A DNA stretch of 64,000 nt from an uncultured Acidobacteriota bacterium. GTDB taxonomy: Bacteria > Acidobacteriota > UBA6911. How positions within the stretch are numbered: position 1 is the first letter of the stretch; each line of letters opens with the position of its first letter. Location of the stretch: NCBI GenBank assembly GCA_963809485.1, contig CAWEJX010000012.1:160001-224000 (forward strand), in the 5' to 3' direction. The notes beneath the pieces are model-generated. The model saw nothing but the letters and a program-made list of their open reading frames with translations, was not told the origin of the DNA and made no database searches. Positions 28,330 through 48,100 of this stretch are shown here, piece by piece. The position numbers and the translations under genes are program-made.

Positions 28330-28615
28330 AATAATCGCCAAGATGCGACACATTTCTTCATCCTGATTCTCACCGGCAAAGACGCGGTCGCAGTTGGGAA
28401 CGATATATTCAGACAACCAGAGAATCTCCGGAGAAGCATGACAGCTTCATTGCGGTTCCGGAGCATAAGTGCCAGGAGGGCGCCAGGGTGATCGCACCCT
28501 GGGAAGCGTGCCCCGCCGAGCGGCGGCGATCATGGGACGGATTTGGCGCCAGCGCCAAAACTCCGGGGTGTCGCTGTGCGTTTGTAATATTACAGGCGAT
28601 AGGAGGGTGCATCCA

Positions 28616-31600
28616 ATGCGTTCCAATGCATGCTTGGTTGTAATTGCTTGTCTGATCCTTTCGGTAACGCCAGCTTCGGCTCAAAGCGACCGAGGTGCCA
28701 TAACCGGCACCGTTTCCGATCCTGCGGGAGCCGTAATTTCCTCAGGTTCCATCGAAGCAAAGAATGTGAACACCGGAGCGGTGTATAAGGCCGCAACTAC
28801 ATCAACCGGCAATTACACTCTAACGCAACTGCCGGCGGGCTCATACCAGTTGTCGGCCTCAGTCCAAGGCTTCAAACAGTACGTCCGGACCGGTATTACG
28901 GTCCTGGTGGCTCAAACGTTGCGCATCGACATAATGCTCGAAGTGGGCAGCATTACCGAAACCATCACGGTGAATGCCGATGCTCCCCTTCTGAAGACGG
29001 AAAGCGGAGAGCTGAGCCATAATGTCAGTTCCGAAACTCTCGGCAGCCTGCCAATACTTGGATTCTCGTCCTCTATCCGCGATCCCTATGCCACGACTCA
29101 GCTAATTCCAGGCGCTCTCTTCCAGGAAAGAACTTATGTACGAATCAACGGCGCCCCCGCCAACACGCAGGGCTTCCGGGTCGAGGGCCAGGATGCCAGC
29201 AATTCCATGCGCATGACTCAGACGGCGCAGAACCAGCCCAGCGTAGATGCGGTGGAAGAGTTTGCAGTTCAGACCAGCAACTATGCCGCCGAGTACGGCC
29301 AGGCTGGAGGCGGTTTCTTCAATATCACGATGAAATCAGGCAGCAACCGCTTCCATGGAAGTGCGTACGACTATTGGATTAATGAAGCACTGAACGCGAG
29401 CACGCCTTTCCTGAACACCAAGAACAGGCAGCGTCGGAACAACTACGGATTTACTCTGGGCGGACCCGTATGGATTCCCAAGGTGTACGACGGTCACGAA
29501 AAGACCTTTTTCTTTTTCAACTTCGAGCAGTTTCGTGAAAACGTCACATACAGTAATAGCCCCTATACGATTCCAACGCTCGCCTATCGCGCGGGGGATT
29601 TCCGCCAGGCCCTGACCGGAAGAAAACTCGGAACCGATCCTCTCGGCCGCGATATCATGGAAGGCACAATATACGATCCGGCGACCGACCGTCTTGCGCC
29701 CAACGGGCAGCGTGTCCGGGATCCGTTTCAATACCAGGGAATTCCGAATACCATTGATCCTGCCCGGTTTGATCCGGTTGCGGTCAAGATCCAGGACCTG
29801 ATTCCCAAACCCACCAACTCAAACCTCACCAACAACTATCTTGTCCCTTGGCCCAGCTCCAATATCCGGACTATCCCGTCCATAAAGGTCGATCACAATT
29901 TTGGCCCGCGCTCCAAGCTGTCCGTCTATTGGTCCATGACGAGGCTGACTGCGTTGGACCAGACCCCCTTCTGCGACGGAATCCAGAGTCCTGTTACGGG
30001 TTGCAGAAACTCCTATGGCAACTCGCATACATTCCGTCTGAACTTCGACCAGACGCTGACGCCCACCACCGTCCTGCATTTCGGAGCTGGTCTGCACACG
30101 CTGGGATGGAAGGATGACACGAATTTTACCGATTTCGATCAGCTCAAGGAACTGGGTCTGCCAGGCGCTAGCGTCACTCTTTTCCCATACATTACTTTCC
30201 CGACCAGTCAGCCCCGAGGCGGCATGAAAAACATGGGCCCGCTTATGCAGAGCCATGAAGACATGGAAAAGCCGACTGCAAATGCCAGCTTGACATGGGC
30301 CAAATCCAGCCACACCTATAAATTCGGGGCTGAAATGCGCCTGGAAGGATATCCGACGCAGGTCTTTAATCCTGCCTATGGCACTTACAACTTTGCTCTC
30401 AGCCAAACCGGACTTGCCATTTCCGGTCTGAACCTCTCCGGCGGAACCATAGGATTCGCCTATGCAAATCTTCTCCTGGGGTTTGTTGACAACGGCAATA
30501 TAGGGGTCGTCAGCAGTCCCCGCATGGGCAAATCCGCGTGGGCTTTGTATGCTCAGGACAGCTGGAAGGTAACCCGCCGGTTCACTCTGGACTATGGATT
30601 GCGATGGGACTACCAGGGCTACTTAAGGGATACCTATGGCCGGATTGCGAATTTCTCCCCTACCACGCCGAACCCCTCCACCGGGGGTCTCCCCGGTGCG
30701 GTGATCTTTGAAGGCTCGGGGCCGGGTCGCTGCAATTGCGATTTCGCGCAGGTCTATCCCTATTCTTTCGGACCGCGGTTGGGAGCGGCCTATCAGATCT
30801 CGGCCAAGACAGTGCTGCGCGCCGGATTGGGTGTCATGTACGGGCAAACCGCAACCGAGAACAGGATTTCCACGAGCATTGCATCGAATAATCTGTTCTC
30901 CACCTCATCCTATGGAGATCCGAGTATATTGCTGAAAGACGGCCCACCAACCCCTGGTCCGTGGCCCAACCTGGACCCCGGCCAGTATCCGCGTCCAGGG
31001 CAGACCACTGCGCCTCCGACCGCATTTGACAATAATGCGGGGCGGCCACCGAGGATGATTCAGTGGAGCTTGAGCATTCAAAGGGAAATTTTTAAGAACC
31101 TGGTGGTTGAGATTTCCTATATCGGCAACCGGGGCGCCTGGTGGGAAGGGAACGAGCTCATCAACGTAAACGCATTGACACCGGAGCGGCTCAACACATT
31201 CGGGCTCAATATAAACAGCCCTGCCGACCAGGCGCTGCTGAAGGCCCGAATGGATTCTTCCACGGCAAAGCTGCGCGGATTCGACACACCGCCCTACTCA
31301 GGTTTTCCCATGTCATCCACCGTTGCCCAATCTTTGCGGCCCTTCCCGCAGTTCGGCACGATCAACTACCTCTGGGCTCCGCTCGGCAGAACCTGGTACG
31401 ACTCGATGCAGATTAAGGTGACAAAGCGGTTTTCCCGCGGGCTGGATTTTACCAGTTCGTTCAGCTGGCAGAAGGAACTCATGATGGGTGCAGAGGTGTC
31501 CAACGCACTGCTGACCGTTCCTGCGGCCGTTAACGATGTATTTAATCGTCCAACGAATAAGTACATCTCGAGGCTGTCACGGCCGTTCGTTTCCGTTACG

Positions 31601-32185
31601 GCAGTGAACTACACGTTCCCCAAGCTGGATGTGAATAAGGTCCTGTCGTGGGCGATCCGCGACTGGACATTTGGCGCCGTCCTGCAGTATGCCAGCGGTA
31701 TGCCCATCAAGGTTCCGACCGCAAACAGCCAGCTCATGTCATTGCTCTTCCGGGACACCTTTGCCAACCGAATCGAGGGCCAGCCGCTTTGGAAGCAAGG
31801 GGTGGACATCAACGACAGGAGCACTTACGATCCATACACGGATTTCGTTCTGAATCCGAAAGCATGGACGGATCCGCCTGCCGGTCAGTTCAGTTACTCA
31901 CCAGGCTATTACAGCGACTATCGTTATATGCGCCGCCCTTCTGAAGCCATGAGCATCGGGCGGATTTTCCGTGTCAAAGAAGGGGTTTCCCTGAATATCC
32001 GGGCCGATTTCCAGAACATATTCAACCGGCTGGTCATTCCGGATCCAACGGCAACCAATGCCGCAGCGACCCAGAACGTTAATCCCGCCACGGGCCAGAC
32101 CCAGTCCGGATTCGGATATATTGCAACAAACGGGACCGGAACAGCGCCTCGTAGCGGTATAATAGTTGCCCGAATTCAGTTCTAG
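28616..32185 (+). CDS. TonB-dependent receptor, Oar type
   Basis: Signal peptide, AQSDRGAITGTV, plug motif SVDAVEEFAVQTSNYAAEYG, QDSWKVTRRFTLDYGLRWD and terminal RIQF. Confidence 0.95.
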   Translation: MRSNACLVVIACLILSVTPASAQSDRGAITGTVSDPAGAVISSGSIEAKNVNTGAVYKAATTSTGNYTLTQLPAGSYQLSASVQGFKQYVRTGITVLVAQTLRIDIMLEVGSITETITVNADAPLLKTESGELSHNVSSETLGSLPILGFSSSIRDPYATTQLIPGALFQERTYVRINGAPANTQGFRVEGQDASNSMRMTQTAQNQPSVDAVEEFAVQTSNYAAEYGQAGGGFFNITMKSGSNRFHGSAYDYWINEALNASTPFLNTKNRQRRNNYGFTLGGPVWIPKVYDGHEKTFFFFNFEQFRENVTYSNSPYTIPTLAYRAGDFRQALTGRKLGTDPLGRDIMEGTIYDPATDRLAPNGQRVRDPFQYQGIPNTIDPARFDPVAVKIQDLIPKPTNSNLTNNYLVPWPSSNIRTIPSIKVDHNFGPRSKLSVYWSMTRLTALDQTPFCDGIQSPVTGCRNSYGNSHTFRLNFDQTLTPTTVLHFGAGLHTLGWKDDTNFTDFDQLKELGLPGASVTLFPYITFPTSQPRGGMKNMGPLMQSHEDMEKPTANASLTWAKSSHTYKFGAEMRLEGYPTQVFNPAYGTYNFALSQTGLAISGLNLSGGTIGFAYANLLLGFVDNGNIGVVSSPRMGKSAWALYAQDSWKVTRRFTLDYGLRWDYQGYLRDTYGRIANFSPTTPNPSTGGLPGAVIFEGSGPGRCNCDFAQVYPYSFGPRLGAAYQISAKTVLRAGLGVMYGQTATENRISTSIASNNLFSTSSYGDPSILLKDGPPTPGPWPNLDPGQYPRPGQTTAPPTAFDNNAGRPPRMIQWSLSIQREIFKNLVVEISYIGNRGAWWEGNELINVNALTPERLNTFGLNINSPADQALLKARMDSSTAKLRGFDTPPYSGFPMSSTVAQSLRPFPQFGTINYLWAPLGRTWYDSMQIKVTKRFSRGLDFTSSFSWQKELMMGAEVSNALLTVPAAVNDVFNRPTNKYISRLSRPFVSVTAVNYTFPKLDVNKVLSWAIRDWTFGAVLQYASGMPIKVPTANSQLMSLLFRDTFANRIEGQPLWKQGVDINDRSTYDPYTDFVLNPKAWTDPPAGQFSYSPGYYSDYRYMRRPSEAMSIGRIFRVKEGVSLNIRADFQNIFNRLVIPDPTATNAAATQNVNPATGQTQSGFGYIATNGTGTAPRSGIIVARIQF

Positions 32186-32266: not shown

Positions 32267-32437
32267 TTATTGGGACCGGCCAATAAAGTTACACGGCCAA
32301 TACCCAAGCCCCGGAGGGGCGTAACATGACAGCGCCCCGGGCGCAAGCCCGGGGTTAAGTGGATGGGAGAACGAAGCCCGGCAGGGGCGTCACATGGTTT
32401 TTGGGTAGTGTCCCCTGTGATTTGCGGGACCCAATAA
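32267..32437. repeat. REP-like palindrome cluster bounded by imperfect inverted repeats
   Basis: agccccggaggggcg / ccccgggcgcaagcccgggg / agcccggcaggggcg, flanked by ttattgggacc...ggacccaataa. Confidence 0.5.
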
Positions 32438-32548
32438 TTAGCGCCTCAATCCTTCCGAAATGGTGTGCGTATTCACTCCGAATCAGAAAGAACAAAGGAC
32501 ATGGACGATAACCGGGAAGGGATCTACGGGCCTGCCAAGGAGAAAAAA

Positions 32549-34275
32549 ATGAAGGGAATGGGTCGAAGTGCGAGAGGTGTTTTGTGGATAGCCGCCTTTA
32601 TTTTCAGTTCCACGCTGCTGGCGCAAGAGGCAAAATTTGCGGTACTGAACCCGAGGGGCACACAACCGCCGATACGACTTGTCCCGATGGCGCCACGGTT
32701 GGATACACTGGACGGCAAGACGATATACATCGTCAATGTGGGCTTTGGGGATACATTCCTGCCCGAAACACTGAAGGTGCTCGCGCAGCGATACCCCAAA
32801 ACCAATTGGGTTCTCAAAAGGAAAATCGGAAGCTATTTTGACGATGATCCGAAACTATGGGCCGAAATCAAGGAAAAAGGGCATGGAATGATAATGGGAG
32901 TCGGGCATTGAAGCACCTGTTCGCCGGCGGTCGTCGGCCATTGCCTGACAGTGGAAAGACTCGGTCTACCTACGGCTCCCGTGATCACGCAACGGTTCGA
33001 AGAACTGGTCAAGACCATTGCCTACAAAAAGGGGATGCCAAACCAACGATTTGTTTTTGTCCCCCATCCTGTCGCCGGCAGATCTCCCGAATTATGCCAT
33101 CGGTATATGGAAGGCAATGATCCGGTGACGAAAAAGCCTATCGTGGAGGAGTTTTTGGCGGCTCTGACAAAACCGCTGAATCCTGAGGAGAAAAAGACGG
33201 GATTTTTGCAGAGACCTCCTCGACCGAGGCTCATCGAACCGGATACAGCCGAAAACCTGCAGCGTCTCTTTGCAAAGAATGGGTGGACCGACGGTATTCC
33301 CATAGTCCTTCCGACCGAAGAAAGAGTGGCTTTGATGCTGAAGAACACGAGCCGCAAACCGGACGAGGTTGTCGGTACCATGCGCCCGTCGCCTCCCCAT
33401 GAGGCCTGGGAGTTCACCGTCGAAATGGTTGCCACGAATGCCGTAATGGCCGGTGCTAAACCGGAATATATTCCGGTGATTCTAGCCCTGGCTTCGACCG
33501 GAGTGACTTCACTTTTCAGTTCAACCACGTCTTTTGCGCGCATGGTTGTCGTCAATGGCCCTATCCGAGAACAGATCAGTATGAATTCGGGACTTGGCGC
33601 TATGGGGCCTTTCAATGAGGCCAATGCCACGATTGGACGAGCTTGGACCCTGATATCCAAAAATCTCGGTGGCGGAGGTACGCCGGGAGAAACCTACCTC
33701 GGCAGTCAAGGGAACAATCTTAATTACAACAATATTTGCTTTGCCGAAAGGGAGGACGCGCTTCCCGCCGGCTGGAATCCCGTTCACGTTCAAAAGGGCC
33801 ATAAGGCTGGAGAGAGCTACGTCAGCACCTTCACCGGCTGGAGCCTCATCAACTATGGCGGTTTTGCACTCCCGCACCATCAGTTTATCAAACGAATGCT
33901 GACCGGTTTGCTGGCCAGCGGGACCGGCTCCGGCAGCCAGGCCACTCTGTTGCTTGATCCGATTACGGCACGGGACCTCAGGAATGATGAGGGCTTCGAC
34001 ACAAAGGAAAAGCTAAGTGACTGGCTGATGAAGAATGGAACATCGCCCGCGCAGCAGTACTGGGCACGCCACTCCGATGAGCTGAAGAAAGGCAAAGAGG
34101 GGATCGAGCCCTTTGCGTCATGGCTGAAGTACCCAGAGGACGCCTTCATACCCGTTTCAAACTTCAGGCCGGAGACGCCGATCGAGATTATCGTTGTGGG
34201 GGGGAAACGAATGCTTTTCTGATGGCGGGGGATTTTCGTTATGTCTCGGGCGCCTCTGTGGATAAGTGGAGGTAA
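32549..34275 (+). CDS. Exported UGSC-like selenoprotein 1 (Sec at TGA 32909-32911; 1-nt indel in G-run ~34200)
   Basis: ORFs 32465-32911 and 32951-34222 are in the same frame and read GVGH-U-STCSPAV across the TGA. SECIS hairpin, signal peptide and GWTDG.PI.LPT.ERV are present. The C-terminus SVDKWR is restored by adding one G. Confidence 0.9.
32912..32938 (+). promoter_or_regulatory. Bacterial SECIS element
   Basis: TGA-N11-GCCGGC-GGTC-GTCGGC. Confidence 0.85.
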
Positions 34276-34505
34276 GGCTCGATTCGTTTGCGAACCAAAT
34301 TGTAATTGCGATCACGACTTCTCGGTGCAGATTTCATGGGGTCGCCTGCTTTTGACCGGGTAACGAGGTAGGAAACTGTTTATCAGCAAAGCAGCTGGAT
34401 ACGGAAGACACGGAGCAAGCGCGATCCACGGATAAAAACCCTGGCTTTTATCCGCGTTCTTCTGTGTCCTTCCGTATCCCTGCTTTTTCGCGATGGAGGC
34501 TTTCG

Positions 34506-35078
34506 TTGAATAATAAACAACTCTACTGCTTTTGGGCAGCTTCGATAATAGTTGCAGCCAGTCTAAGCCCGTTAGGCGCTCAAACCCCCGGTTCCTCACC
34601 GGCGGCCCCCGCGTCGACAGGCGTTACGATTACGGGAATCGTCGAATGCGGGCAGGGCTACACTTCCCACGAACTGTATGACATGAAAATTACCGTGACG
34701 GATGTGGTGCGCGGTGAAGCAGCATGGATGCGGATCAAGGAAGCGAGTCCATCAAACAAAGCTGCGGAGGCGGGATTCGAGTATGTCCTGGCCCGCGTGA
34801 AATTTGAATATTATGCGAGAGGAACACCCGGCCTGTGTATCCATCAACTCAATCCACAGCAATTCAGCGCTGTTTCTTTGGAAGGCCAGGATTATCAGAT
34901 TGCCCAGGTAGTGCTTCCGAAACCGGACTTGCGCAAAGCCATGAAGTCGGGTGAGACAGTCGAAGGTTGGATTGCGTTTTCTGTGTCTCAGCAGGACAAA
35001 GGTCCTCTCATGACATATTCTGCCGATCAGGGTGGGGCGATCGAGCACGGCGGAGCGAAGTGGTTTTTGCTTCGTTGA
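34506..35078 (+). CDS. Small secreted partner protein 1 (DUF4352-like Ig fold)
   Basis: GGAGG plus TTG start, signal peptide, ECG...YD.KI....V.RG, EYVLARVKFE and GETVEGWIAF; four paralogs in the cluster. Confidence 0.75.
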   Translation: MNNKQLYCFWAASIIVAASLSPLGAQTPGSSPAAPASTGVTITGIVECGQGYTSHELYDMKITVTDVVRGEAAWMRIKEASPSNKAAEAGFEYVLARVKFEYYARGTPGLCIHQLNPQQFSAVSLEGQDYQIAQVVLPKPDLRKAMKSGETVEGWIAFSVSQQDKGPLMTYSADQGGAIEHGGAKWFLLR

Positions 35079-35294
35079 GTTTGGGCCTGTGATAAGGCAT
35101 GCTGGGCAGGATGACAGCTTGGAAGTCTCAAGGCAGCCGAAGGCGTCGACCTGAGGTGAATGGAATGCGGCCATTTTGGGGAGAGCGGATTTGTCCTGCT
35201 CCTATCCATGCGAGAGCGAGACCAATGGCGTAGCTAACAAAATCCTGAAGCACTCAACAATTCGTTATATGCTGATTTAAGGAGGACTAGAGCA

Positions 35295-37023
35295 ATGAAA
35301 AGCCGAATTTGTTGTTTTTTGGCCGGAATGTTTTTAGCAGCCATTTTTCTGGTCGGGAATGCCATTGGCTGCGGAGAAGCCAAGGTCACGGTAGTAAATC
35401 CCTCGAGGCACACCTCCCCCGATACGCCTGGTGCCGATGGCGCCTCGTTTGGATACCCTGGACGGCAAAACGATCTATGTCATTAACATCGGGTTCGGGG
35501 ATACATTCCTGCCTGAAGTGCAGAAGGTGATGGCCGAGAAATATCCCAAGACGACCTGGATATTCAGGAGAAAGGCGGGAAGGGACTATTTCGACGACGA
35601 TCCGAAGCTTTGGGCCGAAATAAAGGAAAAAGGCCACGGAATGATTATGGGCGTGGGCCATTGAAGCACGTGCTCGCCGGCGGTCGTCGGCCACTGTGTA
35701 ACGGTAGAAAGATTGGGTGTGCCTACTGCGCCAGTTGTTACTCAGAGATTTCAAGAACTGGTGAAGAACTATTTCCTGGAAAAAGGGAATGCCGAAGCAG
35801 CGGTTTACCTTTATTCCGCATCCTGTCGCCGGCAGGCCCCCTGAGTTGTGTAATCAATATGTAAGGGGCAAGGATCCGTTGACTGGAAAACCGATCGTTG
35901 AGGAGTTTGTCGCTGCGCTGACAAACCCGCTGACTGCGGAGGAAAAGAAAACCGGATTCCTGATGAGGGATCCGCAACCACGGCTGTTAGAGCCAAACAC
36001 TCCAACGGCCCTGACAGATCTCTTTGAGAAAAACGGCTGGACCGACGGGCTTCCTATAATACTTCCCACCGAAGAGAGAGTCGCCAATATGCTTAAAGGC
36101 ACCAGCCATAGGCCGGATGAGATTGTGGGCACCATGCGTCCCTCTCCGCCCCATGAGGCCTGGGAATTCAACGTGGAGATGGTTGCCGCCAATGCCGTGA
36201 TGGCTGGAGCAAAACCGGAGTATCTTCCCGTTATCCTTGCATTGTCATCGACAGGCGTAACCTCGCTTTTCAGTTCTACAACATCTTTCGCGAGGATGGC
36301 GGTTGTCAATGGGCCTATCATTACGGAAATCGATATGAATGGCGGGATAGGAGCCATGAGTCCCCTGAACAAGGCCAATGCCACGATCGGAAGAGCGTGG
36401 ACATTGTTATCGAGAAATCTTGGGGGAGGAGCCATTCCCGGGCAGACTTACCTGGGGAGCCAGGGAAACAATCTCAACTACAACAATGTTTGTTTCCCTG
36501 AAAAAGAAGACAAATTGCCTGCGGGATGGAAACCCTTATCCGAGCAGAAAGGGTTCAAGCACGGGGAAAGTGCTGTCAGCACGTTTACCGGATGGGAAAT
36601 CGTTCATGGGGCCCTCGGGATGGGGGGTAACAAAGAAGGGCTTGCCCGGGCAGTAGCCCGATATTCCACGGGTGCGTATCGGCAGGTTACCTTGTTGCTG
36701 GATCCAATCGTGGCCAGTGATTATAAAGAGCTTCGACGGATTCCAAACCAAGGAAGCGCTCAGCGAATGGCTCCTGAAAAACACTCCTTCACCCGCTCAG
36801 GGGTACTTGCAGAGATCACCCCGATGAGGTGAAACAGGCCAAATCGGGTGTTGAGCCCTTTGCGACATGGTTGAAATATCCGGAAGGAGCACTCATCCCG
36901 GTATCAAGCCTTCGGCCTGAGGTTCCTGTCGAGATAATCGTGGTGGGAGGTGAGACAAATGCCTTCATGCAGATGGGGGATTTCAGGCACGTATCGACCG
37001 CCTCAGTGGACAAGTGGAGATAG
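35295..37023 (+). CDS. Exported UGSC-like selenoprotein 2 (Sec at TGA 35662-35664; at least 4 frameshifts, assembly error or pseudogene)
   Basis: GVGH-U-STCSPAV with SECIS. Fragments 35295, 35431, 35789 and 36829 tile paralog 1 through to SVDKWR. Confidence 0.8.
35665..35691 (+). promoter_or_regulatory. Bacterial SECIS element
   Basis: TGA-N11-GCCGGC-GGTC-GTCGGC. Confidence 0.85.
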
Positions 37024-37095
37024 AGGCAAATAGTCATGACCGGGAAAGAGGCAGACAATGCCTCTTTCCCATTTCATACAAAAGGAGAGGTTAAT

Positions 37096-37666
37096 ATGAA
37101 ACACAGGATTTCTGCTCTATTAGCTTGTTTGATTTTGGCGGCCTTTGCTCGGGTTGGATACCGCAGCAGCACAAGGTCTGTCTCCCTCCAATGCGGCGCC
37201 GATCGGCACGTCGATAAAAACTCAGGTGGAATGCGGGGAGCGAGCAGGTTCCATGGAGCCCTACGATGCAAAGATTGCTGTTCTCCAGGTTTTGCGCGGC
37301 AAGGAGGCATTGGATCGCATAAAGGCGGCAAACCCCTCCAGTCAGCCTCCGAAGGCCGGCTTTGATTATGTTGCTGCGCGCGTGGCGTTTCAGATGAATG
37401 CGATTCTGGCGCCGGGAAACAAGACTTTTGAATTGGCAAGAAAGATGCAGTTTGTTGCGCTCACGGCAGATGGGAACGAGCAGGAGCCTCCTTCGGTGAG
37501 TCCACCTTCGCCGGAGCTTCATCGGACAGTGCGCTCAGGTGAGTCTGCGGAAGGCTGGATTGTTCTGTTGGTGGAACAGTCGAATAAGAAACCCGTGATG
37601 TTCTTTGATCCTGCGGCTGGCGGTGCCATGGGAGGCGGTAAAGTCCTGTTCTTCCAGCTTTACTGA
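37096..37666 (+). CDS. Small secreted partner protein 2 (frameshift in signal region ~37150)
   Basis: RBS plus MKHRISALLACL, then SPSNAAPIG...ECG...YDAKI..LQVLRG...GESAEGWI. Confidence 0.72.
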
Positions 37667-37870
37667 GTACCGGGGTTCGGTCTGCAAATCCATCGAGGCT
37701 CTTAGGAGAGATCCGGTCCAATCCGACAGGATGTCCTCCAACGCAATGCTCCTCTGTTTCTGGATATTTTCCAGCGAAATGACATTCGTTTCCGGCATGA
37801 CCGTCCATACCTACACTCGCTGTCCGATCATGGCGGCGGTTTTATGTCTCAGAGATGTTGCATTTCCTGA

Positions 37871-38159
37871 GTCAGGCACCTCCGGTAAAGCCGGAGGCTT
37901 GAAAGATTGGAACCGCTCAAAGCGGTTGGAGGAGTTCCGCCGGTCTTGAACGCTGACTTACGCGGGCAAAAGCCGATGAGGCGCTCCGCGCTGGCCCCTG
38001 CGGGGATCGGAAGCGCCTCATCGGCTTTTGCTCGCCGACCCTCGCCGAACAAATCGGCGTGTGTCAGCGCTTTTATCAGCGTTTCTCAGCGTTTCAAAAT
38101 ACCGAGCTGTCAAACTCTTTGAGTCTCCCGGCAGAGCCGGGGGGTTACCAATGTAATTA
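37871..38159. mobile_element. IS200/IS605-like element, copy C, with internal inverted-repeat insert
   Basis: Same ends as copy A; perfect 20-bp IR at 37966-37985/38012-38031. Confidence 0.75.
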
Positions 38160-38288
38160 TTTCGGAAAAATGCCGCTGCCTGAATTTTTTTGGCAGAAAA
38201 GCAAAGAAGTCCTGGATATAGGATTTATCCACGAAATAGGATATCAGTTGTCCGCTCATGGCAGAACAGGCTGGTCAGGGAGGATGCG

Positions 38289-39908
38289 ATGAAAGCAAGA
38301 AAAGGTATTTTATTGTTTCTTTCGGGTGTGAGCACATTGGTATTCATCCTGCTTGCCTCTAAAGCAGCACAGGCAGAAAACATCCGGGCGCTCGATCCTC
38401 GCGGCATCCCGCCGACTGTGGAGAGGATTCCGCTGAGTCCGCGTCTGGCCGGCATCAAGGGCGCCAGGATCTACATTGTGATGTCCTGGCCGACCAATTC
38501 CGCTTTCGATAGTGTCGTCAAAGATCTGGTGCTGCTCCTGAAGGAGCGTGGCGCCAAAGAAGTAACCATCAAGCAGCGCAATGCCCGCTATTCCGAGGAC
38601 GATCCGAAACTATGGGATGAGATGAAGCAGATGTGCGATGCATTTATGTATGTCGCGGCACCGTCCTCTTCGACTACGTCCTATGCTTTTCAATGGAGCG
38701 CCAAACTTGAAAAGATGGGCCTGCCTGGCACCGTTGTGAATTTCGACGATCTGAACAGCGTCGGCGACACTACAAGCAGCCGATGGGGAGCGATGCTGCG
38801 CCGTTCGTCCTTCGTTTATCCACCCGAAACCATGAATAAGCAGGCTTATCCTGAGGCATTATCCCGTGCGATCGATAATCTGACCAGGCCCTTGACTCCG
38901 GAGGAAAAGGCCACCGGCGTAATGCAACCCAAGCCGCGGCCGGAAATTTACGTCTCCGGTGATTTTGATCAAATTCAAAAATCGTATTACGACGCCGGGA
39001 TGACGGATGGGTTGCCGATCATTCCGCCAACAGCCGAACGCGTGGCTGCGATGCTGAAAGGCACAGGCCATAAGCCCGACGAAGTTGTTGCCCAGGCATT
39101 GATGCCTGAAGGGCTGGGCGTTACCGTTAAACACGTGGCGATCAATGGCGTAATGGCCGGATGCCTGCCGGAGCAAATGCCGGTTTTGCTTGCGACTATT
39201 GAAGCGTATCAAAAGAACAATTTGAATTCGGTTTTGCGGTCAACAAACCCTTTTTCCTTCATGCAGGTCGTGAACGGACCGATCGCCCAGCAGCTGAAGA
39301 TGAATAGCGGCACTGGCGCGCTCAGCCCCGGCAATCAGGCAAACGCCTCAATGGGGCGCGCTCTGCGGCTGTTCATCCTCAATCTCGGGGGCGGCGTGCC
39401 CGGAGTCAACCTGATGGCCGTAATAGGCAATGTCTCGAGTTATTCCTTTATGTTTGCGGAGAACGAAAAGGAAAGCCCATGGGAACCGCTCAGCGTCAGT
39501 CTCGGGTACCAGAAGAACGATAGCACTCTCACATTTTTTTTGGGAGGCTGGGCGCACTCCGGTAATTACGGACCTGGCTTTGCCGGTGAGGTTGCGCTTG
39601 ATAGCGTTGCGCAGGACATGTCACCGTATCAAATGACCTCCGGCGCGACTGTGATTATTTCTCCCAAGTTCGCGCAAGATCTCCAGAGACGTGGAATGAC
39701 CAAAGCTGACGTTGAAAGCTATTTACAGAAGCATTCCACACGCGCGCCGCGCAAAGGCCGGCCAGCCGAAGCCGCTCAAAGCGGGCCGGTGCCGGTGTTT
39801 CCGGAAGGCACCGTCAAGATCATTGTGGCCGGCGGAGATGCCAGTTCTATGATGCAGGCGTGGAGCATGTATCGCCCGATAATCGTATCGATCGACAAAT
39901 GGCGGTAG
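38289..39908 (+). CDS. Exported UGSC-like paralog lacking Sec/Cys (UxxC replaced by SxxT)
   Basis: Uninterrupted ORF homologous to both halves of the selenoproteins (PRG.PP, DDPKLW, TDGLPIIPPT.ERV, SIDKWR). Confidence 0.88.
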   Translation: MKARKGILLFLSGVSTLVFILLASKAAQAENIRALDPRGIPPTVERIPLSPRLAGIKGARIYIVMSWPTNSAFDSVVKDLVLLLKERGAKEVTIKQRNARYSEDDPKLWDEMKQMCDAFMYVAAPSSSTTSYAFQWSAKLEKMGLPGTVVNFDDLNSVGDTTSSRWGAMLRRSSFVYPPETMNKQAYPEALSRAIDNLTRPLTPEEKATGVMQPKPRPEIYVSGDFDQIQKSYYDAGMTDGLPIIPPTAERVAAMLKGTGHKPDEVVAQALMPEGLGVTVKHVAINGVMAGCLPEQMPVLLATIEAYQKNNLNSVLRSTNPFSFMQVVNGPIAQQLKMNSGTGALSPGNQANASMGRALRLFILNLGGGVPGVNLMAVIGNVSSYSFMFAENEKESPWEPLSVSLGYQKNDSTLTFFLGGWAHSGNYGPGFAGEVALDSVAQDMSPYQMTSGATVIISPKFAQDLQRRGMTKADVESYLQKHSTRAPRKGRPAEAAQSGPVPVFPEGTVKIIVAGGDASSMMQAWSMYRPIIVSIDKWR

Positions 39909-40141
39909 CGGCAAGAATATCTTGAATGTTGTCAGCCCGGAAGCAGAGAAGGCTTGCAAAATCAGGGCAGACGGCACAATGTATGCCCTCCAAGGGTAGG
40001 CCGCACAAAGCGCGGCCAACCCTTTGCTGTGGCGCCCCGTTGGGGCCCTGCCCCCACCCTGGGGGACTTATCCGCCCTTAACCGCTCGAAGCCAACCTCG
40101 CCGCAAAGGCGCAAGCAGGCTTACGCACTCCAAAGACAGCT

Positions 40142-41872
40142 TCACCGCCATTTATCGATAGAGGCGCTGGCAACATGGCTGAAATCCATGGCCATCCAGT
40201 AGGGATTGGTTCCCCCTCCGACCACAATCACATTGATGGGCGGATTCCCTCCCTTCCGCCTGACAAAGGGAGATACGGGCAAAGCAGCGCTCTGCGGTAG
40301 CTTCAGCCACGATGCAAACGGTTCAACACCGGCTTGAGCCTTTTTAAGATCGTCAGGACGGCTGGCCCAATAGTGCCACGCGGGCCAGGTTGCGTTTTTC
40401 TCGAGCCACTCGGCCAGCTTCTCTTTGGTATCGAAGCCTTCGACTTCCTTCATATCTCTCGCGGTCACTGGGTCGATCAGCACGGTCGCCGTACTTCCCC
40501 ACCCGCCTCCGCTCATGAAGAAACTCATCAGCGCATTCTTCATGATCTCATGATGCTGTACCGGAAGGTATGCGCCGTAATCGAGAACGCTCCAGCCGCT
40601 GAATGCGCTGACGACGCTCTCTTGCGGCTTGAAGCCTTTCTGAACATGCAAGGGCTGCCAGCCTGCGGGCAGATCCTCTTCCGTTTCCGGGAAACAGATA
40701 TTATTGTAATTCATGCTGTTGCCCTGGCTTCCGAGATACGTCTCGCCAGGAATGCCGCCTCCTCCGAGATTCTTTGAAATCAGCGTCCACGCTCTGCCTA
40801 TGGTTGAGTTTGCTTCATTAAACGGGCCCATGGCCCCGATCCCCGAGTTCATCTTTATCTGCTGCGCGACAGGCCCGTTTACAACGACCATCCTCGCGAA
40901 AGAGGTGGTCGAGGTGAACAGGGAGGTGACTCCCGTCGAGGAAAGAGCCAGGATAACGGGAAAGTACTCGGGTTTTGCACCTGCCATGACCGCATTTGCG
41001 GCGACCATCTCAACTGTGAATTCCCACGCTTCGTGTGGAGGGGACGGCCTCATCGTGCCGACTGTTTCATCGGGCTTATGACTCGTTCCCTTCATCATCT
41101 CAGCGACCCTTTCCTCGGTGGGCAGCTCTATGGGCAGTCCGTCTGTCCACCCGTTGTCGTTGAAAAGCTTCTTCAGGTTGTCCGGAGTGTCGGGCGAAAG
41201 CAATCGCGAACGAGCACCGCGCGACACAAACCCGGTTTTCTTGTCGTCGCCGGACAAAGGCTGGGTAAGGCCTGCAATGAACTCCTGAATCAGCGGCTTG
41301 CCCGTTACCGGATCGTTACCTTCGAGATATTTACGGCAGACCTCGGCAGGTCTTGCGGAGATGGGGTGTGGGACGAAAGCGAATCGCATCCCGGGCATCC
41401 CTTTTTTGAATGCGATGGTTCTTACCAGATCGGTGAATCGCTGAGTGATGATAGGCACGGTGGGGATTCCGAGCCTCTCTACCGACAGGCAATGGCCGGC
41501 GACCGCCGGCGAGCATGTGCTTCAATGACCTATGGCCATGATCATGCCGTGCCCCTTTTCTTTTATCTCTTGCCAGAGTTTGGGGTCGTCGTCGAAATAA
41601 CTGCCGATCTTTTTCTTATAAACCCAGTTTGTTTTCGGGTAATGCGCAGCCATGACCTTCTGGATTTCCTGGACAAAGGGTTCCGTCAAAGGATAATTCG
41701 TGTCAACGATGTAGATTGTTTTTCCATCCAGGCTGTCCAGGCGCGGGGCCATGGGGATCAGGCGAATCGGAGGCTGTATGCCTCGCGGATTCAGCACTGA
41801 AATTTTTTGAGCATCTGCTGCAAATGAAGCGCAGGCGATGAGAATCGCCAGAAAAGGCATGTGCATTTTCAT
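40142..41872 (-). CDS. Exported UGSC-like selenoprotein 3 (Sec at 41522-41524; 576 aa)
   Basis: ORFs 41522-41929 and 40142-41458 are in frame and read AIGH-U-STCSPAVAG. SECIS, GGAGG RBS and signal peptide are present. Confidence 0.92.
41495..41521 (-). promoter_or_regulatory. Bacterial SECIS element
   Basis: TGA-N11-GCCGGC-GGTC-GCCGGC (perfect stem). Confidence 0.85.
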
Positions 41873-42149
41873 AGGAACCTCCGAACCCCATTTTCGCACA
41901 AAACAGTAAAGCAGCCATGCAGATTTCACAGATTTTACGAAAGACCCCGGAAAACAAGGCCCGCTTGCTTCATAGGGGCAATCTGTGAATTCTGCGGTTG
42001 TCTTTAGCTTTTGGAAAAATCAGGGGATTTGGGCCGGCCCGGCACTAGTATGTGGGTAGGCTGCAAATTTCTATATCGATAGTGCATTTTCATAGTAAAA
42101 TGGGGCTCGCGCAAAATGCAGCGACACCCGCAGGGCATTATTGTGTCCT

Positions 42150-42393
42150 TTGCGAAAATCACCTGAAACAGACCCAGTCGGGAATTGAACCTTTCGTGTC
42201 CTACTTGAAAGCCGGGAACATGGCATCACAGCCGGTATCGTGTTTCATTCGCAGACCTCCATCAGGCGCCCCCGCGTCAGCGCGGCATATGGCCGCCGGT
42301 ATGGAATGGCGGAGCAGGATTCGGGCTTGTGTAATAGGAAATCTGATTTACGGATCAGTGTCTGATCTGCACGAATGGTCGAAAGGGACGTAA
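42150..42393 (+). pseudogene. Remnant of a UGSC-like gene C-terminus
   Basis: LKQTQSGIEPFVSYLK...QPVS resembles KQAKSGVEPFATWLK...IPVS, and GNLIYGSVSDLHEW resembles GDFRYVSGASVDKW. Confidence 0.55.
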
Positions 42394-42420
42394 ACAATTC
42401 ATCATGAAAGGAGAACCGGC

Positions 42421-44229
42421 ATGGACCCTGCCGAGAATGAAAAGAAGAGCACGAGTAGAAGAGCATTTTTCAAGGGCATAGCCGCCGGCGCCGCAGGTGC
42501 AAGTTTGTTGAGTCCGTTTGCCCGGGAAGCCGCGCCCAGTTCCAGTCCGCAGAAAGCAAAGGAGGAGTTGATTACGGTTTTTAACCCTCTCGGACAACCT
42601 CCTCCCCTGGCTTTACTGCCTTTGGCGCCTCGCCTCGATACCCTAAAAGGCAAAACAATCTATGTCGTGGATACTAAATTCCCGGCCAGCAAGACCTTTT
42701 ATGAAGAATTCGTCAGAATTCTCAAGGAGAAATATCCCGATACGACCTGGATTCCGAGAGATAAGATAGGAAGTTATTTTGACGATGATCCAAAACTGTG
42801 GGCCGAAATCAAGGAAAAGGGCCACGGAATGATCATAATGGTAGGTCACTGAAGCACCTGTGCGCCGGCGGTCGCCGGTCATGCGCTAACCGTGGAAAAG
42901 CTGAAAGTGCCCGCAGTGCCCATAATCACCCAGACTTTTAACCGATCTGTCAAGAATGCTGTTTACGTCAAGGGAATGCCCCTCATCCGATTTGCCTTTG
43001 TCCGCCACCCCGTCGCATATACGCCGCTCGCTGACTGCAGGGCGGCCATATTGGGCAAGGATCCTGTGACCGGCAAACAGGTTCTTGATGAAGTTGTTGC
43101 GGGGCTGACCAGTCCTTTGACTGCGGAGGAAAAGAAGACGGGTTTCATAGAAAGGCCGCGGGACAGGTTTGTAAAGCCCGACACGGCCGACAACCTGCAG
43201 AACCTGTTTCGCGACAGCGGATGGACGGACTACCTGCCGATCATTCTTCCGACGGAACAGAAAGTGGCCGAGATGCTCAAAGGCACCAGCCACATGCCCG
43301 ATGAACCGGTAGGCGAGATGCGCCCATCTTCTCCTCACGAAGCGTGGTCCTTCGACGTACGGAAAGTTGCAATCAATGCGGTGATGGCGGGCGCAAAACC
43401 GGAATTTCTCCCGGTAATTCTGGCGATTGCATCCTCGGGGGTCACCTCGCTCTTCACTTCTACAAATTCCTTCACCTCCATGGTGGCCGTAAATGGACCC
43501 ATACGCAAAGAGATAAACATGAACATGGAGATAGGCGCGTTGGGTCCCTTTAATCACGCTAATGCAACCATTGGAAGAGCCTGGACACTGATGTCGAAGA
43601 ATCTGGGCAATGGAGGTGTTCCCGGGCAGAACTACATGGGCAGTCAAGGGCAAGGCCATAGCTACACCAATCTCTGCCTTGGAGAAAAAGAAGAGCGTTT
43701 GCCGCCAGGGTGGAAACCCTTTCATGTACAGAAGGGATTCAAGCCGGAAGAGAGTGTTGTAAGCATGTTCGACGGCTGGAACTGGTCCAACGTTGGGGGA
43801 TTTGAGAGTACTAAGGATCGATCCATCAAACGGTTTTTCGAAAATAATACGCAATGTTGCGGCGCCACCCTGGTTTTAGACCCACTCGTGGCCGACATGC
43901 TCTACAAGGAACTCGGGTACAAAACCAAGGAGCAGTTTCAGGACTGGCTGAACAAGAGCGTTGGAACGGTCAAAGATGATTATTGGGGGGCGATCTCCGG
44001 CCAGGGCGGAGCTGAAGGACCCGGCGGCCGTCGAGCGAAAGAGTATGAACAGGCCAAAGCAGGGGTTGAGCCCTTCGCAACATGGCTGAAATATCCTGAA
44101 GGAGCCGTACTCCCGGTGTCCAGAAATGTGCAGGTCAATATACTCGTGACTGGAGGAGAGACGAATCCCTATTGGCAGGGTGGGAGTCTCAGATACATCG
44201 CAAGTGCATCCGTCGACAAATGGAGGTAG
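42421..44229 (+). CDS. Tat-signal UGSC-like selenoprotein 4 (Sec at TGA 42850-42852; 602 aa)
   Basis: SRRAFFKG signal; in-frame MVGH-U-STCAPAVAG; SECIS; ends ASVDKWR. Confidence 0.92.
42853..42879 (+). promoter_or_regulatory. Bacterial SECIS element
   Basis: TGA-N11-GCCGGC-GGTC-GCCGGT. Confidence 0.85.
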
Positions 44230-44283: not shown

Positions 44284-44853
44284 ATGAGAACAAAGATGAT
44301 TTTGGGTATGCTGGCAGCGCTGGCTGCCTCGATGCCCGCTATGCGGGCACAGTCACGAGAACCCGGTTTCTCTCCATTGAATCCCGCGCAGGTTGGAACC
44401 CGCCTGGGAACTGTTATCGAATGCGGCTTCGGCTATAGTCCCCATGAAAAATATGACGTCAAATTGACTCTTCTGGAAGTTCTGCGCGGAGATAAGGCAT
44501 CGGAGCGGATTAAAGCAGCAAGCGCATCCAATCAACCTCCGAAGGCTGGGCTCGAGTATATTCTTGCCCGCGTCAAGTTTGAGTTTTTTGCCAAAGGGGC
44601 GCCGGGGAATTGTGTTCATGAACTGAGACGGGAAGAATTTGCGGCCTTCTCCGCCGATGGGCAAGAATACGAGGCCGCCATGATTGCACCTCCCCAGCCG
44701 GGGCTCAGCGCGAAGCTCAATTCAGGCGATTCCTTCGAGGGCTGGCTTGCCTTCCAGGCGCCGCAAGGCGGGAACAAGGCATTGCTGAGGTTTGTCGCCA
44801 GCGTCGGAAGCGCCGTCGAACAGGGAGGGCAAGTGTGGTTTCAGCTTTATTGA
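44284..44853 (+). CDS. Small secreted partner protein 3 (DUF4352-like)
   Basis: Signal peptide; SPLNPA, ECG, YDVKLTLLEVLRG, EYILARVKFE and GDSFEGWL. Confidence 0.78.
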   Translation: MRTKMILGMLAALAASMPAMRAQSREPGFSPLNPAQVGTRLGTVIECGFGYSPHEKYDVKLTLLEVLRGDKASERIKAASASNQPPKAGLEYILARVKFEFFAKGAPGNCVHELRREEFAAFSADGQEYEAAMIAPPQPGLSAKLNSGDSFEGWLAFQAPQGGNKALLRFVASVGSAVEQGGQVWFQLY

Positions 44854-44861
44854 ATGGGCCC

Positions 44862-45171
44862 TAGCTAGTTTCTGTCGCGAAACTCGGTTCTTGCGAGGAA
44901 ACCGGATTTTTCAACAGTCGATAGGATATTTGATATTATGTAGAAGCCGGGAATTGGAGCCAGGCCGCGTAGCGGTCAGCTGAGTTTAGCCAGGCCTTTT
45001 AAGGCTTGGATCTAAAGGAGTTAGGTTTTCCGTCGCCTAGCAACGGTTGAATCTCAGGCGGCGCTACGCGACGCGCTATTCTCAATACCATGATTCCCGG
45101 CCTTGAAAGGCCGGGCTAAAATCATAGTGCCGCTATGCGGCGCAAACCAGTTTCGCGACAGAAACTAGCTA
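44862..45171. mobile_element. MITE with perfect 23-bp terminal inverted repeats carrying a REP-like doublet
   Basis: tagctagtttctgtcgcgaaact (44862-44884) / agtttcgcgacagaaactagcta (45149-45171). Confidence 0.75.
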
Positions 45172-45204: not shown

Positions 45205-45765
45205 GTGAAGCTCAGAAGAACACTCGCATGGCTTGTTCTGGCATACCTGGTTACAGCTCCTGCCTTACTGCAGTCGCAAATACCAGGCTACTCCCCGCTC
45301 AGCCCGGCAGCCGTCGGCGCCCGGGTGGAGACCGTGATCCAATGCGGCGGAGAGCCTTGTGATGTGAGAATCTTCCTTCTCGAGGTTGTGCGCGGCGAGA
45401 AGGCCTGGCAACGTATCCAAGCGACAAATTCGTCCAATACTCCGCCGGAAGGCGACCTAGAATATGTCCTTGCGCGTATGAGGTTCGAGATGTCTTCGAG
45501 GACTCCGGGAAGCAAGAGCTACCCGATAAGATCGGGACAGACAGGGCAGTTTTTCGCTTTCTCGGCAGAGGGCCAACCCTATGAGACGCCTGCTCTGGTG
45601 TTGCCCAAACCGGAACTGGAGGGCTTGCTCCGTTCCGGCGAATCGATTGAGGGCTGGATTGCTTTCCGTGTACTCAAGAGCGAAGCCAAGCCGCTGATGA
45701 GCTTTGATCCGGCATCCGGGGCGGCTAAAAGCCAAGGCAAGCTCATATGGTTCCGGCTCCAATAA
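45205..45765 (+). CDS. Small secreted partner protein 4 (DUF4352-like)
   Basis: Signal peptide; SPLSPA, QCGGEPC, LLEVVRG, EYVLARMRFE and GESIEGWIAF. Confidence 0.78.
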   Translation: MKLRRTLAWLVLAYLVTAPALLQSQIPGYSPLSPAAVGARVETVIQCGGEPCDVRIFLLEVVRGEKAWQRIQATNSSNTPPEGDLEYVLARMRFEMSSRTPGSKSYPIRSGQTGQFFAFSAEGQPYETPALVLPKPELEGLLRSGESIEGWIAFRVLKSEAKPLMSFDPASGAAKSQGKLIWFRLQ

Positions 45766-46150
45766 ATAGCGGTTCCGGCAAGTCAACGAAAGATGAAATG
45801 ATTCGGCGGCCGGTGAGGACTTTCAATTCGCATCAAGAGGAAAAACACTGAAAAGGCGAAGTGGAAGAAAAGCCTGCACGGCGAGAAAGGCAATCGAATG
45901 GGATGTCCGCTCGTTGCGGGGCGCGGATGCACATCCTCTGCGCGATAAATCCTCCCTGGCGCCATTCGGAAAATTTTGAATTGCCTGGGATTGCCTTCCA
46001 AACCGCCGCCTGTTTTCCGGGTTCTGACATCACCTTAATGCCGGCTGTGTCGCCCGGCTGAAGCGAAGCAGATGAAAAGAGACCTATGGATGAGTGCATG
46101 GAATTTATCGGATTCACCAACAGATTTCGCAATGGAAAGGAGAAATAACG

Positions 46151-47836: not shown

Positions 47837-48100
47837 AGCGAATTCTCGGGCAGATAAGTCCGCTAGGCCAGCCTTAGGCGAAAGACCGATGTGGCAATGA
47901 TCCGGCTGGCGCAAGCAAAACAGGTCCCGTCCAGCAGGCGGGACCTCGGAGCCTGTCCGAGAATTGGGAGGGGCCACGTTCCTGGCTTGGCGGGGGCAGA
48001 TGTAGGGCGGCGCAGCGGCCCAGCCCCATACGCGCGATCCCTCCTCATTCTCGGGCAGGTTCCCGGTGCCGGATATAATCCTGATGATGGGAGAATACCG

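Follow-up and report, generated by a model that had tools for sequence, protein, structure and literature searches.

The window analysed here is a 64-kb stretch of DNA (64,000 nt) from an uncultured Acidobacteriota bacterium of the UBA6911 lineage, namely positions 160,001 to 224,000 of contig CAWEJX010000012.1 in assembly GCA_963809485.1 (C12:160001-224000 of genome G000 in our numbering). The genome comprises 6.04 Mb in 21 contigs and is 95.7% complete. A cluster of genes for long-form proteins of the UGSC family lies within the window, and four of these genes carry an in-frame TGA codon that is followed by a short hairpin. This hairpin, the subject of the present analysis, is most probably a bacterial selenocysteine insertion sequence (SECIS) element that assigns selenocysteine (Sec, U) to the UGA codon.

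UGSC genes with an in-frame TGA

The genes of the cluster are listed below.

32465..34222, + strand: gene 1, predicted long-form UGSC selenoprotein with a signal peptide; C-terminal end unlike that of its relatives, with a 1-nt gap at 34200
35276..37022, + strand: gene 2, long-form UGSC paralog whose frame is disrupted by several single-base indels; the ortholog in the related genome G006 is intact
38190..39908, + strand: Sec-less paralog with P-S-S-S-T-T-S at the Sec site, hairpin absent
40142..41929, - strand: gene 3, predicted long-form UGSC selenoprotein (U-S-T-C) with a signal peptide; ends with ...DKWR and then a genuine TGA stop
42421..44229, + strand: gene 4, predicted long-form UGSC selenoprotein with a twin-arginine-like leader (SRRAFFKG)

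With TGA read as U, the four loci would encode proteins of about 600 aa. The signal peptides of genes 1 and 3, as judged from sequence, are of the Sec export type. The UGSC domain PF24696 spans the TGA in the N-terminal part, with scores of 67.3, 94.7 and 84.8 bits (cut-off 25), and the Sec-less paralog scored 32.2 bits against the same profile. Scores for the NCBIfam equivalog NF041046 were 46.8-70.6 bits, under its curated cut-off of 125, indicating that the long fused forms are relatives of the short UGSC equivalog rather than members of it. The C-terminal stretch of about 385-450 aa has no Pfam family. It is found in at least 7,458 metagenome clusters at E ≤ 1e-5 among the best 8,000 candidates scored; most of its database entries are fragments of 430-460 aa that begin past the TGA, and one relative carries the NCBI name 'UGSC family (seleno)protein'.

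An AlphaFold2 model of gene 3, built with 58 aligned relatives, was continuous through the Sec site (mean pLDDT 90.5, pTM 0.87) and placed the Sec position between a strand (128-134) and a helix (139-151). A Foldseek search with the full-length model gave no convincing match (best TM about 0.16-0.19), the C-terminal domain alone not having been searched. VIA-align matched only residues 65-229 of the model, to generic three-layer alpha/beta folds (Z ≤ 10.8), and a search of the ESM Atlas returned nothing beyond the protein's own family.

The G006 ortholog of gene 2 is uninterrupted over 580 aa apart from its one TGA. Relative to it, seven single-base indels were counted in gene 2; genes 3 and 4 have none against the same genome, which is 94-95% identical in this region. 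Either gene 2 is a pseudogene or the assembly contains local errors there. In gene 1, the 1-nt gap at 34200 falls in a G run and the conserved ...DKWR end is absent. The four copies are therefore not all intact genes. The hairpin, which a reading made earlier from the sequence alone had attributed to all four paralogs, is present in each copy.

A profile built from the paralogs found 56 loci in the genome that cover the Sec column, 44 with an in-frame TGA and 12 without. Loci were called full-length-looking if a single TGA is preceded by at least 90 open codons and followed by at least 380, and 36 of the 44 were of this kind (examples of family loci are C4:341902-347503 and C12:154960-158117).

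The machinery for Sec insertion is present in the same genome. SelB, encoded at G000:C20:730205-732088, is full-length (391.3 bits, cut-off 242), tRNA-Sec scored 70.6 bits with the anticodon tca, SelA scored 564.7 bits and SelD 345.5 bits, with one in-frame TGA within selD itself. TGA also serves as the terminal stop in 7 of the 36 full-length-looking UGSC genes, gene 3 included, so the codon is not reassigned genome-wide.

These data bear on the possibility that translation does end at the TGAs, each locus then being two genes or a pseudogene, or that they are read through without SelB, the hairpin acting as a generic stimulator, a pause site or an mRNA-stability element. Public gene callers do cut at the TGA, leaving most entries as the fragments mentioned above, and gene 2 is indeed broken. 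However, a single Pfam domain and a single confident predicted fold run across the TGA, which aligns with the U of UxxC in a catalogued selenoprotein family; in 36 of the 44 loci the frame is open before and after the one TGA, the genome encodes the complete Sec machinery, and the geometry of the site agrees with the SECIS of fdhF (see below). Termination or SelB-free read-through is accordingly very unlikely.

A hairpin 11 nt past each TGA

The window contains exactly four matches to TGA-N11-GCCGGCGGTCGYCGGY, and a set of 100 dinucleotide-preserving shuffles contains none, as expected from the sequence-only reading, which had placed the hairpin GCCGGC-GGTC-GYCGGY exactly 11 nt past each of the four TGAs. 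The sites, each recognised by pattern, frame and fold, are as follows.

32909..32938, + strand: gene 1 site; TGA 32909-32911, 11-nt spacer, putative SECIS GCCGGC-GGTC-GTCGGC at 32923-32938
35662..35691, + strand: gene 2 (frameshifted copy) site; TGA, spacer, putative SECIS GCCGGC-GGTC-GTCGGC at 35676-35691
41495..41524, - strand: gene 3 site; TGA 41524-41522, spacer, putative SECIS GCCGGC-GGTC-GCCGGC at 41510-41495
42850..42879, + strand: gene 4 site; TGA, spacer, putative SECIS GCCGGC-GGTC-GCCGGT at 42864-42879

Read in frame, the sites give G-H-U-S-T-C-(S/A)-P-A-V-(V/A)-G-H. The anatomy of the element is established: for each of the four 16-mers alone, RNAfold predicted a stem of six base pairs capped by a 4-nt loop, GGUC (-9.0 to -11.7 kcal/mol); a lower helix is weak or variable. 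The stem differs among the four sites only at GTC/GCC (Val/Ala) and GGC/GGT (synonymous), in each case a U or C that faces G, so the changes are G-C/G-U swaps of which one costs Val/Ala, as had been noticed earlier. The spacer codons differ (Thr ACC/ACG/ACA; Cys TGT/TGC), and CCG GCG GTC is identical in all four. The Sec-less paralog at 38190-39908, with P-S-S-S-T-T-S at the aligned site, has no such hairpin.

Synonymous sites are frozen in the hairpin and free beside it

The contrast between a variable spacer and a fixed hairpin, first seen in the four copies, was also found at scale. A set of 112 loci from relatives (L077-L079, L093-L201) together with the source genome yielded 139 sites, 130 of them distinct and drawn from 30 species. 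Among the distinct sites 113 were H-U-x-x-C, and these 113 sequences were used for codon counts; nine were close Sec-less homologues (eight Q-L-D-T, one H-M-D-T). Counts of base pairs were made on 104 distinct 45-mers. The entropy of codon choice within the hairpin was 0.12 bits at Ser+4 (TCG in 62 of 63), 0.21 at Pro+5 (CCG in 104 of 107), 0.52 at Ala+6, 0.45 at Val+7, 0.22 at Val+8 and 0.60 at Gly+9. Four-fold codons flanking the hairpin on either side reached 1.59-1.87 bits.

In the nine close Sec-less homologues, with Leu (eight) or Met (one) in place of Sec, a similar A-P-S/A-V peptide is encoded, the stem positions are unpaired and the hairpin is lost; four-fold codons for Ala, Pro and Val within the same stretch showed 1.15-1.75 bits. 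A hairpin equally conserved in Cys homologues would have counted against a Sec-linked role; no Cys form was seen among the close homologues examined, and neither the hairpin nor the codon freeze is present in the nine Sec-less ones.

Folding energies were compared as the minimum free energy (MFE) of the 36 nt starting 7 nt past the TGA. The mean MFE of the 44 Sec sites of the genome was -11.0 kcal/mol and that of the same peptides recoded by genome codon usage was -8.0, with a mean z of -1.15 and 27 of 44 sites below -1. Eleven Sec-less sites averaged -6.4 (z +0.1), and 264 other windows of the same genes -6.95. Of the 44 Sec sites, 33 passed the published criteria for bacterial SECIS (bSECIS) elements; so did one of the 12 Sec-less paralogs and 42 of the 220 in-frame positions taken as controls. 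When the loop was also required to lie 16-20 nt from the UGA, 29 of the 44 Sec sites and 4 of the 220 controls still had a hairpin that fits the model.

The conservation might instead reflect protein-level constraint on P-A-V-A/V-G, the palindrome being a by-product of GC-rich codons with no function in the RNA. The peptide is itself conserved, most stem columns are invariant within the subfamily, and the recoded Sec-site peptides still fold somewhat better than the Sec-less sites (-8.0 against -6.4). Against this, synonymous third positions are frozen in the hairpin and free in its flanks; the Sec-less homologues keep a similar peptide with varied codons and no hairpin; the doubly synonymous change described in the next section is linked in every instance; and subfamilies with unrelated peptides have a hairpin at the same place. 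This explanation was therefore considered improbable to a still greater degree than termination at the TGA. Selection on the RNA and the loss of the hairpin in Sec-less homologues are both established by these comparisons.

Covariation of the loop-closing pair

Standard pairs filled 92.9% of stem cells in the 104 45-mers, as against 12-77% when the partner was slid. With the helix numbered from nt 15 (11 nt past the UGA), the pair 21:24 closing the loop was G:C in 92 sequences, A:U in 10 and non-standard in 2, and the single-change forms AGUC and GGUU were found in none. The double change GCG/GTC to GCA/GTT is synonymous in both codons and linked in 10 of 10. The resulting AGUU loop occurs in three peptide contexts, in one of which sisters with the same peptide have GGUC, indicating at least three events. 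Pair 15:30 was once C:G. The real covariation lies in the loop-closing pair 21:24 and in the replacement of whole stems between subfamilies.

The linked 21:24 change suggests that the outer loop bases are paired under a two-base G-U; G21 and C24 would thus probably pair beneath the G-U, possibly like G22:C25 in fdhF. Among departures from Watson-Crick pairing, G·U far exceeded A·C (70 against 6 cells), which fits a structure on the sense-strand RNA. A DNA-level feature, be it a palindrome bound by a protein or a short tract that gene conversion has made uniform among the paralogs, is the least probable explanation of all: GCCGGC is itself a DNA palindrome and many paralogs within the genome share the 16-mer, but the departures from symmetry are mostly G·U and so pair only in the sense-strand RNA, synonymous variation directly on both sides of the 16-mer does not agree with conversion tracts, the element keeps the same distance to an in-frame TGA throughout and is missing from Sec-less paralogs, and none of the 12 genome matches of a covariance model of the hairpin (R1, described below) lies away from an in-frame TGA.

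Comparison with known SECIS elements and UGSC proteins

The bSECIS consensus, as given by the bSECISearch criteria in PMC13188914, allows 3-9 nt in the apical loop and 4-16 bp in the upper stem, with an MFE ≤ -7.5. The same criteria call for a G among the first two loop positions followed by G/U and for a UGA-to-loop distance of 16-37 nt (PMC13188914). The window hairpins lie within the coding region behind an in-frame UGA and fall inside the ranges for loop, stem, distance (17 nt) and energy, at the short end of the allowed UGA-to-loop distance. In the automatic test, genes 1, 2 and 4 passed via the hairpin described here, with a UGA-to-loop distance of 17, and gene 3 passed via a more stable structure downstream (distance 34), its own 16-nt hairpin fitting by inspection. 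The evolutionary signature of bSECIS elements, i.e. covariation, frozen synonymous sites and loss together with Sec, was likewise observed.

In the E. coli K-12 record (NC_000913.3), codon 140 of fdhF is TGA, the upper helix, GGU(U)GCA/UGCACC, begins with nt 15 and nt 22-25 form the GGUC loop, which bears out the statement in the sequence-only reading that the E. coli upper stem lies 11 nt from the UGA with a GGUC loop. The window element resembles it in lying within a coding sequence, in a helix starting at nt 15 and in a GGUC loop with G-U. It differs in having a perfect stem of 6 bp (7 counting G21:C24) without a bulged U, a loop at nt 21-24, one nucleotide nearer the UGA, and a host gene for a UGSC-domain protein rather than a formate dehydrogenase. 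The bulged U of the fdhF upper helix has a role there; it is absent from the four window hairpins, and at 19:26 a U·U mismatch occurs in some orthologs. In SECIS recognition, SelB makes contact with the extruded G-U.

UGSC is a catalogued selenoprotein family, with 255 Sec forms and 21 Cys forms counted in the GOS data (PMC2398784); a UGSC/Unknown_1 fusion is noted in the same selenoproteome, and the family is also listed in a 2026 review (PMC13188914). The SECIS as such is thus of a known kind. Like known members, the window proteins have an N-terminal domain above the PF24696 cut-off and a UxxC motif; unlike them, they have the motif U-S-T-C, a fused C-terminal domain without a Pfam family and export signals, and in the genus the family reaches 9-58 domain matches per genome.

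Other hairpin classes in the same genome

The 44 Sec sites split into subfamilies with differing peptides (SAVSR, WWGSRR, ASVAA, SVQSEY, KYLAYN and others) and differing stems. The helix starts about 11 nt past the UGA in most of them (13 nt in SVQSEY), and G-U lies in the loop. The classes of hairpin are as follows.

PAVAG class: GCCGGC-GGUC-GYCGGY
SAVSR class: AUCGGC-CGUGA-GCCGAU
WWGSRR class: GUGGUGGG-GUU/GUG-CCCRCCRC
ASVAA class: GGCGA-GUG-UCGCC
SVQSEY class: GUGUUCA-GUC-UGAAUAC
Further class: GCCCGCG-GUUG-CGCGGGC
Further class: GCCCGG-GGUCA-CCGGGC
Further class: CGUGGCU-GGUU-AGCCGCG

Five KYLAYN genes have an extended hairpin of 40 nt that starts 10-11 nt past the UGA, with a compensatory A:U to G:C pair between copies; the view of these genes as hairpin-less was dropped once it was found. 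Three tandem paralogs (G000:C4:342223, 344594 and 346598) read W-U-G-A-A, the second Cys of UxxC being missing. Their hairpin, GUGUUCA-GUC-UGAAUAC, is AU-rich (-5.6 kcal/mol) and falls outside the published energy threshold.

Two candidate elements were found outside the family. In selD (G000:C8:81012), which reads A-A-G-U-A-S-K, a 13-nt spacer is followed by GUCCGGC-GGC-GCUGGAC. In a gene for a secreted thioredoxin-like (Trx-like) protein (G000:C1:58056), which reads W-U-P-H-C, GACC-CGUGA-GGUC lies 17 nt past the TGA. As in the window, both have a short GC-rich hairpin soon after an in-frame UGA, with a loop that starts with G or is CGUGA. The spacers (13 and 17 nt), the stem sequences and the GGC loop of selD differ from those of the window, and the CGUGA loop of the Trx-like gene is shared with the SAVSR subfamily.

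A covariance model had been suggested as a means of finding further selenoproteins in the genome, an expectation that failed. Model R1, for which 14 sequences and the 6-bp structure were used, scored above 50 bits on 45 short loci only in the H-U-S-T-C subfamily (other SECIS classes ≤ 15 bits, selD 0.5 bits), and its 12 matches over the whole genome were all UGSC paralogs of its own subfamily; it is too sequence-specific for finding other selenoproteins. Three descriptor scans, which combined coding potential with a hairpin and in the last case a redox motif, were rejected as unreliable: the thresholds of the first were too strict (4 candidates, 1 known site), and the second and third gave 24 and 45 candidates that resembled out-of-frame noise and missed selD. 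Homology checks in the genome found no in-frame TGA for PF00578, PF02627 and PF10262, one PF00384 match with a TGA near its end that was taken as a stop, and one convincing extra selenoprotein for PF00085, the Trx-like W-U-P-H-C gene. No Rfam family matched the hairpins.

Expansion of the family in genome, genus and phylum

Searches of the genome gave 73 matches with gene 4 and 58 with PF24696. In the Sec-less copies and relatives, which include the gene at 38190-39908, G000:C12:100767 and proteins P0085-P0116, the Sec residue gives way to S, T, L, A, G or N, and no clear Cys form was found among them, the single listed Cys appearing misaligned. Other paralogs read U-G-[ST]-C, U-D-G-C and further variants, including U-G-A-A without Cys. 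A Q-L-D-T-C class is abundant and, unlike the Sec forms, has no signal peptide.

The UGSC family was present in 30 of 30 species examined in the genus. Across 25 genomes the number of PF24696 matches ranged from 9 to 58, the source genome having 58 and its 24 relatives 9-45. In an even draw of 301 Acidobacteriota genomes, for which the best 11 candidates per genome were scored, 30 had a PF24696 match; matching members of the phylum outside the genus had 1-3 copies, mostly of a short form of about 185-270 aa.

As a lower bound, 36 full-length UGSC-type genes and two others would encode selenoproteins in this genome, as predicted from their sequences. For comparison, the largest bacterial selenoproteomes listed in PMC13188914 have 57 and 63 selenoprotein genes, the deep-Sep results include 46 selenoproteins in a Desulfosediminicola and 3 in one acidobacterium (PMC12013277), and an older survey gives 4 for the phylum Acidobacteria (PMC1794560). 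A limited full-text literature search on UGSC and acidobacterial selenoproteins found no account of such a UGSC expansion, the scale of which appears to be unreported.

Neighbouring features of the cluster

In G006, the Sec-less gene at 38190-39908 is mostly missing and only 38577-38920 aligns. Small secreted proteins encoded at 34464-35078, 37145-37666, 44284-44853 and 45205-45765 follow the window paralogs and resemble DUF4352 weakly, the 24.4-bit match falling just short of the cut-off. Nine homologs of these DUF4352-like genes were found in the genome; they lie just downstream of 6 of the 44 Sec loci, and for this reason a general pairing of the two was rejected. Two intergenic matches to the Acido-Lenti-1 RNA motif (RF01687) flank the cluster, at 32307-32354 (-) and 45096-45142 (+); with 34.4 and 28.5 bits, both are below the gathering score of 37. 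Just upstream of the cluster, 28469-32185 encodes a putative TonB-dependent receptor of 1,238 aa, and just downstream, 45914-47857 encodes a putative flavoprotein-like oxidoreductase with a twin-arginine-type leader, both named from their translations only.

Discussion

Each hairpin is read here, with a probability of about 0.9, as a bacterial SECIS element of the fdhF type that lies within the coding region of a gene for a long-form UGSC selenoprotein. With the UGA in the ribosomal A site, the start of the hairpin, 11 nt downstream, would stand at the mRNA entrance. There SelB, loaded with Sec-tRNA(Sec), could bind it through its C-terminal domain and would deliver selenocysteine to the UGA so that termination does not occur. 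In the product, the redox motif U-S-T-C would open a helix of the N-terminal UGSC domain. Recognition most probably depends on a short GC-rich helix that carries an exposed G-U dinucleotide at its tip.

Several points weigh against the assignment as a SECIS. SelB binding and actual Sec insertion at the window sites are reached by indirect argument, and the source is a metagenome-assembled genome with an estimated contamination of 7.3%. The frameshifted gene 2 still has a perfect hairpin, so conservation in that gene is uninformative on function. Pair 19:26 was G:U in 60, G:C in 22 and U:U or U:C in 22 of the 104 sequences, which indicates that it is not required; the earlier description of the variation as structure-preserving thus stands for the two C/U differences among the four window copies, both of which keep pairing, but not for this pair in the relatives. 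Double changes are few within the subfamily (12 of 728 cells, 10 of them at one pair), as the helix is mostly invariant there. The bSECIS model fails at 11 of 44 Sec sites, including three AU-rich stems of -5.6 kcal/mol and four KYLAYN sites. Finally, paralogs and orthologs are related, so that p-values overstate the case and the effect sizes are what count.

A broader proposal is that one SelB serves about 40 UGA sites per genome through at least eight sequence-unrelated hairpin classes, the hosts being a genus-specific explosion of exported long-form UGSC selenoproteins. On balance we lean slightly towards this proposal. If it is true, the hairpin classes share only their position (helix start 10-13 nt past the UGA) and an exposed G-U on a short helix, and they form a natural library that would define a minimal SECIS grammar.

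As a SECIS, the element confirms the textbook rules and leaves them unchanged. Its practical value lies in the public gene calls, which truncate UGSC genes at the TGA, and in the number of natural examples: 44 UGA-plus-hairpin sites in one genome and more than 100 others in one subfamily across 30 species. The tolerated variation, in which pair 19:26 is dispensable, 21:24 covaries, G-U is nearly invariant and the helix start is fixed, can help in predicting SECIS elements and in designing recombinant selenoproteins. Should the broader proposal hold, a phylum regarded as selenoprotein-poor would join the most selenoprotein-rich bacteria, with the excess coming from one family. The expansion of a single exported selenoprotein family raises the question of selenium-dependent chemistry outside the cytoplasm.

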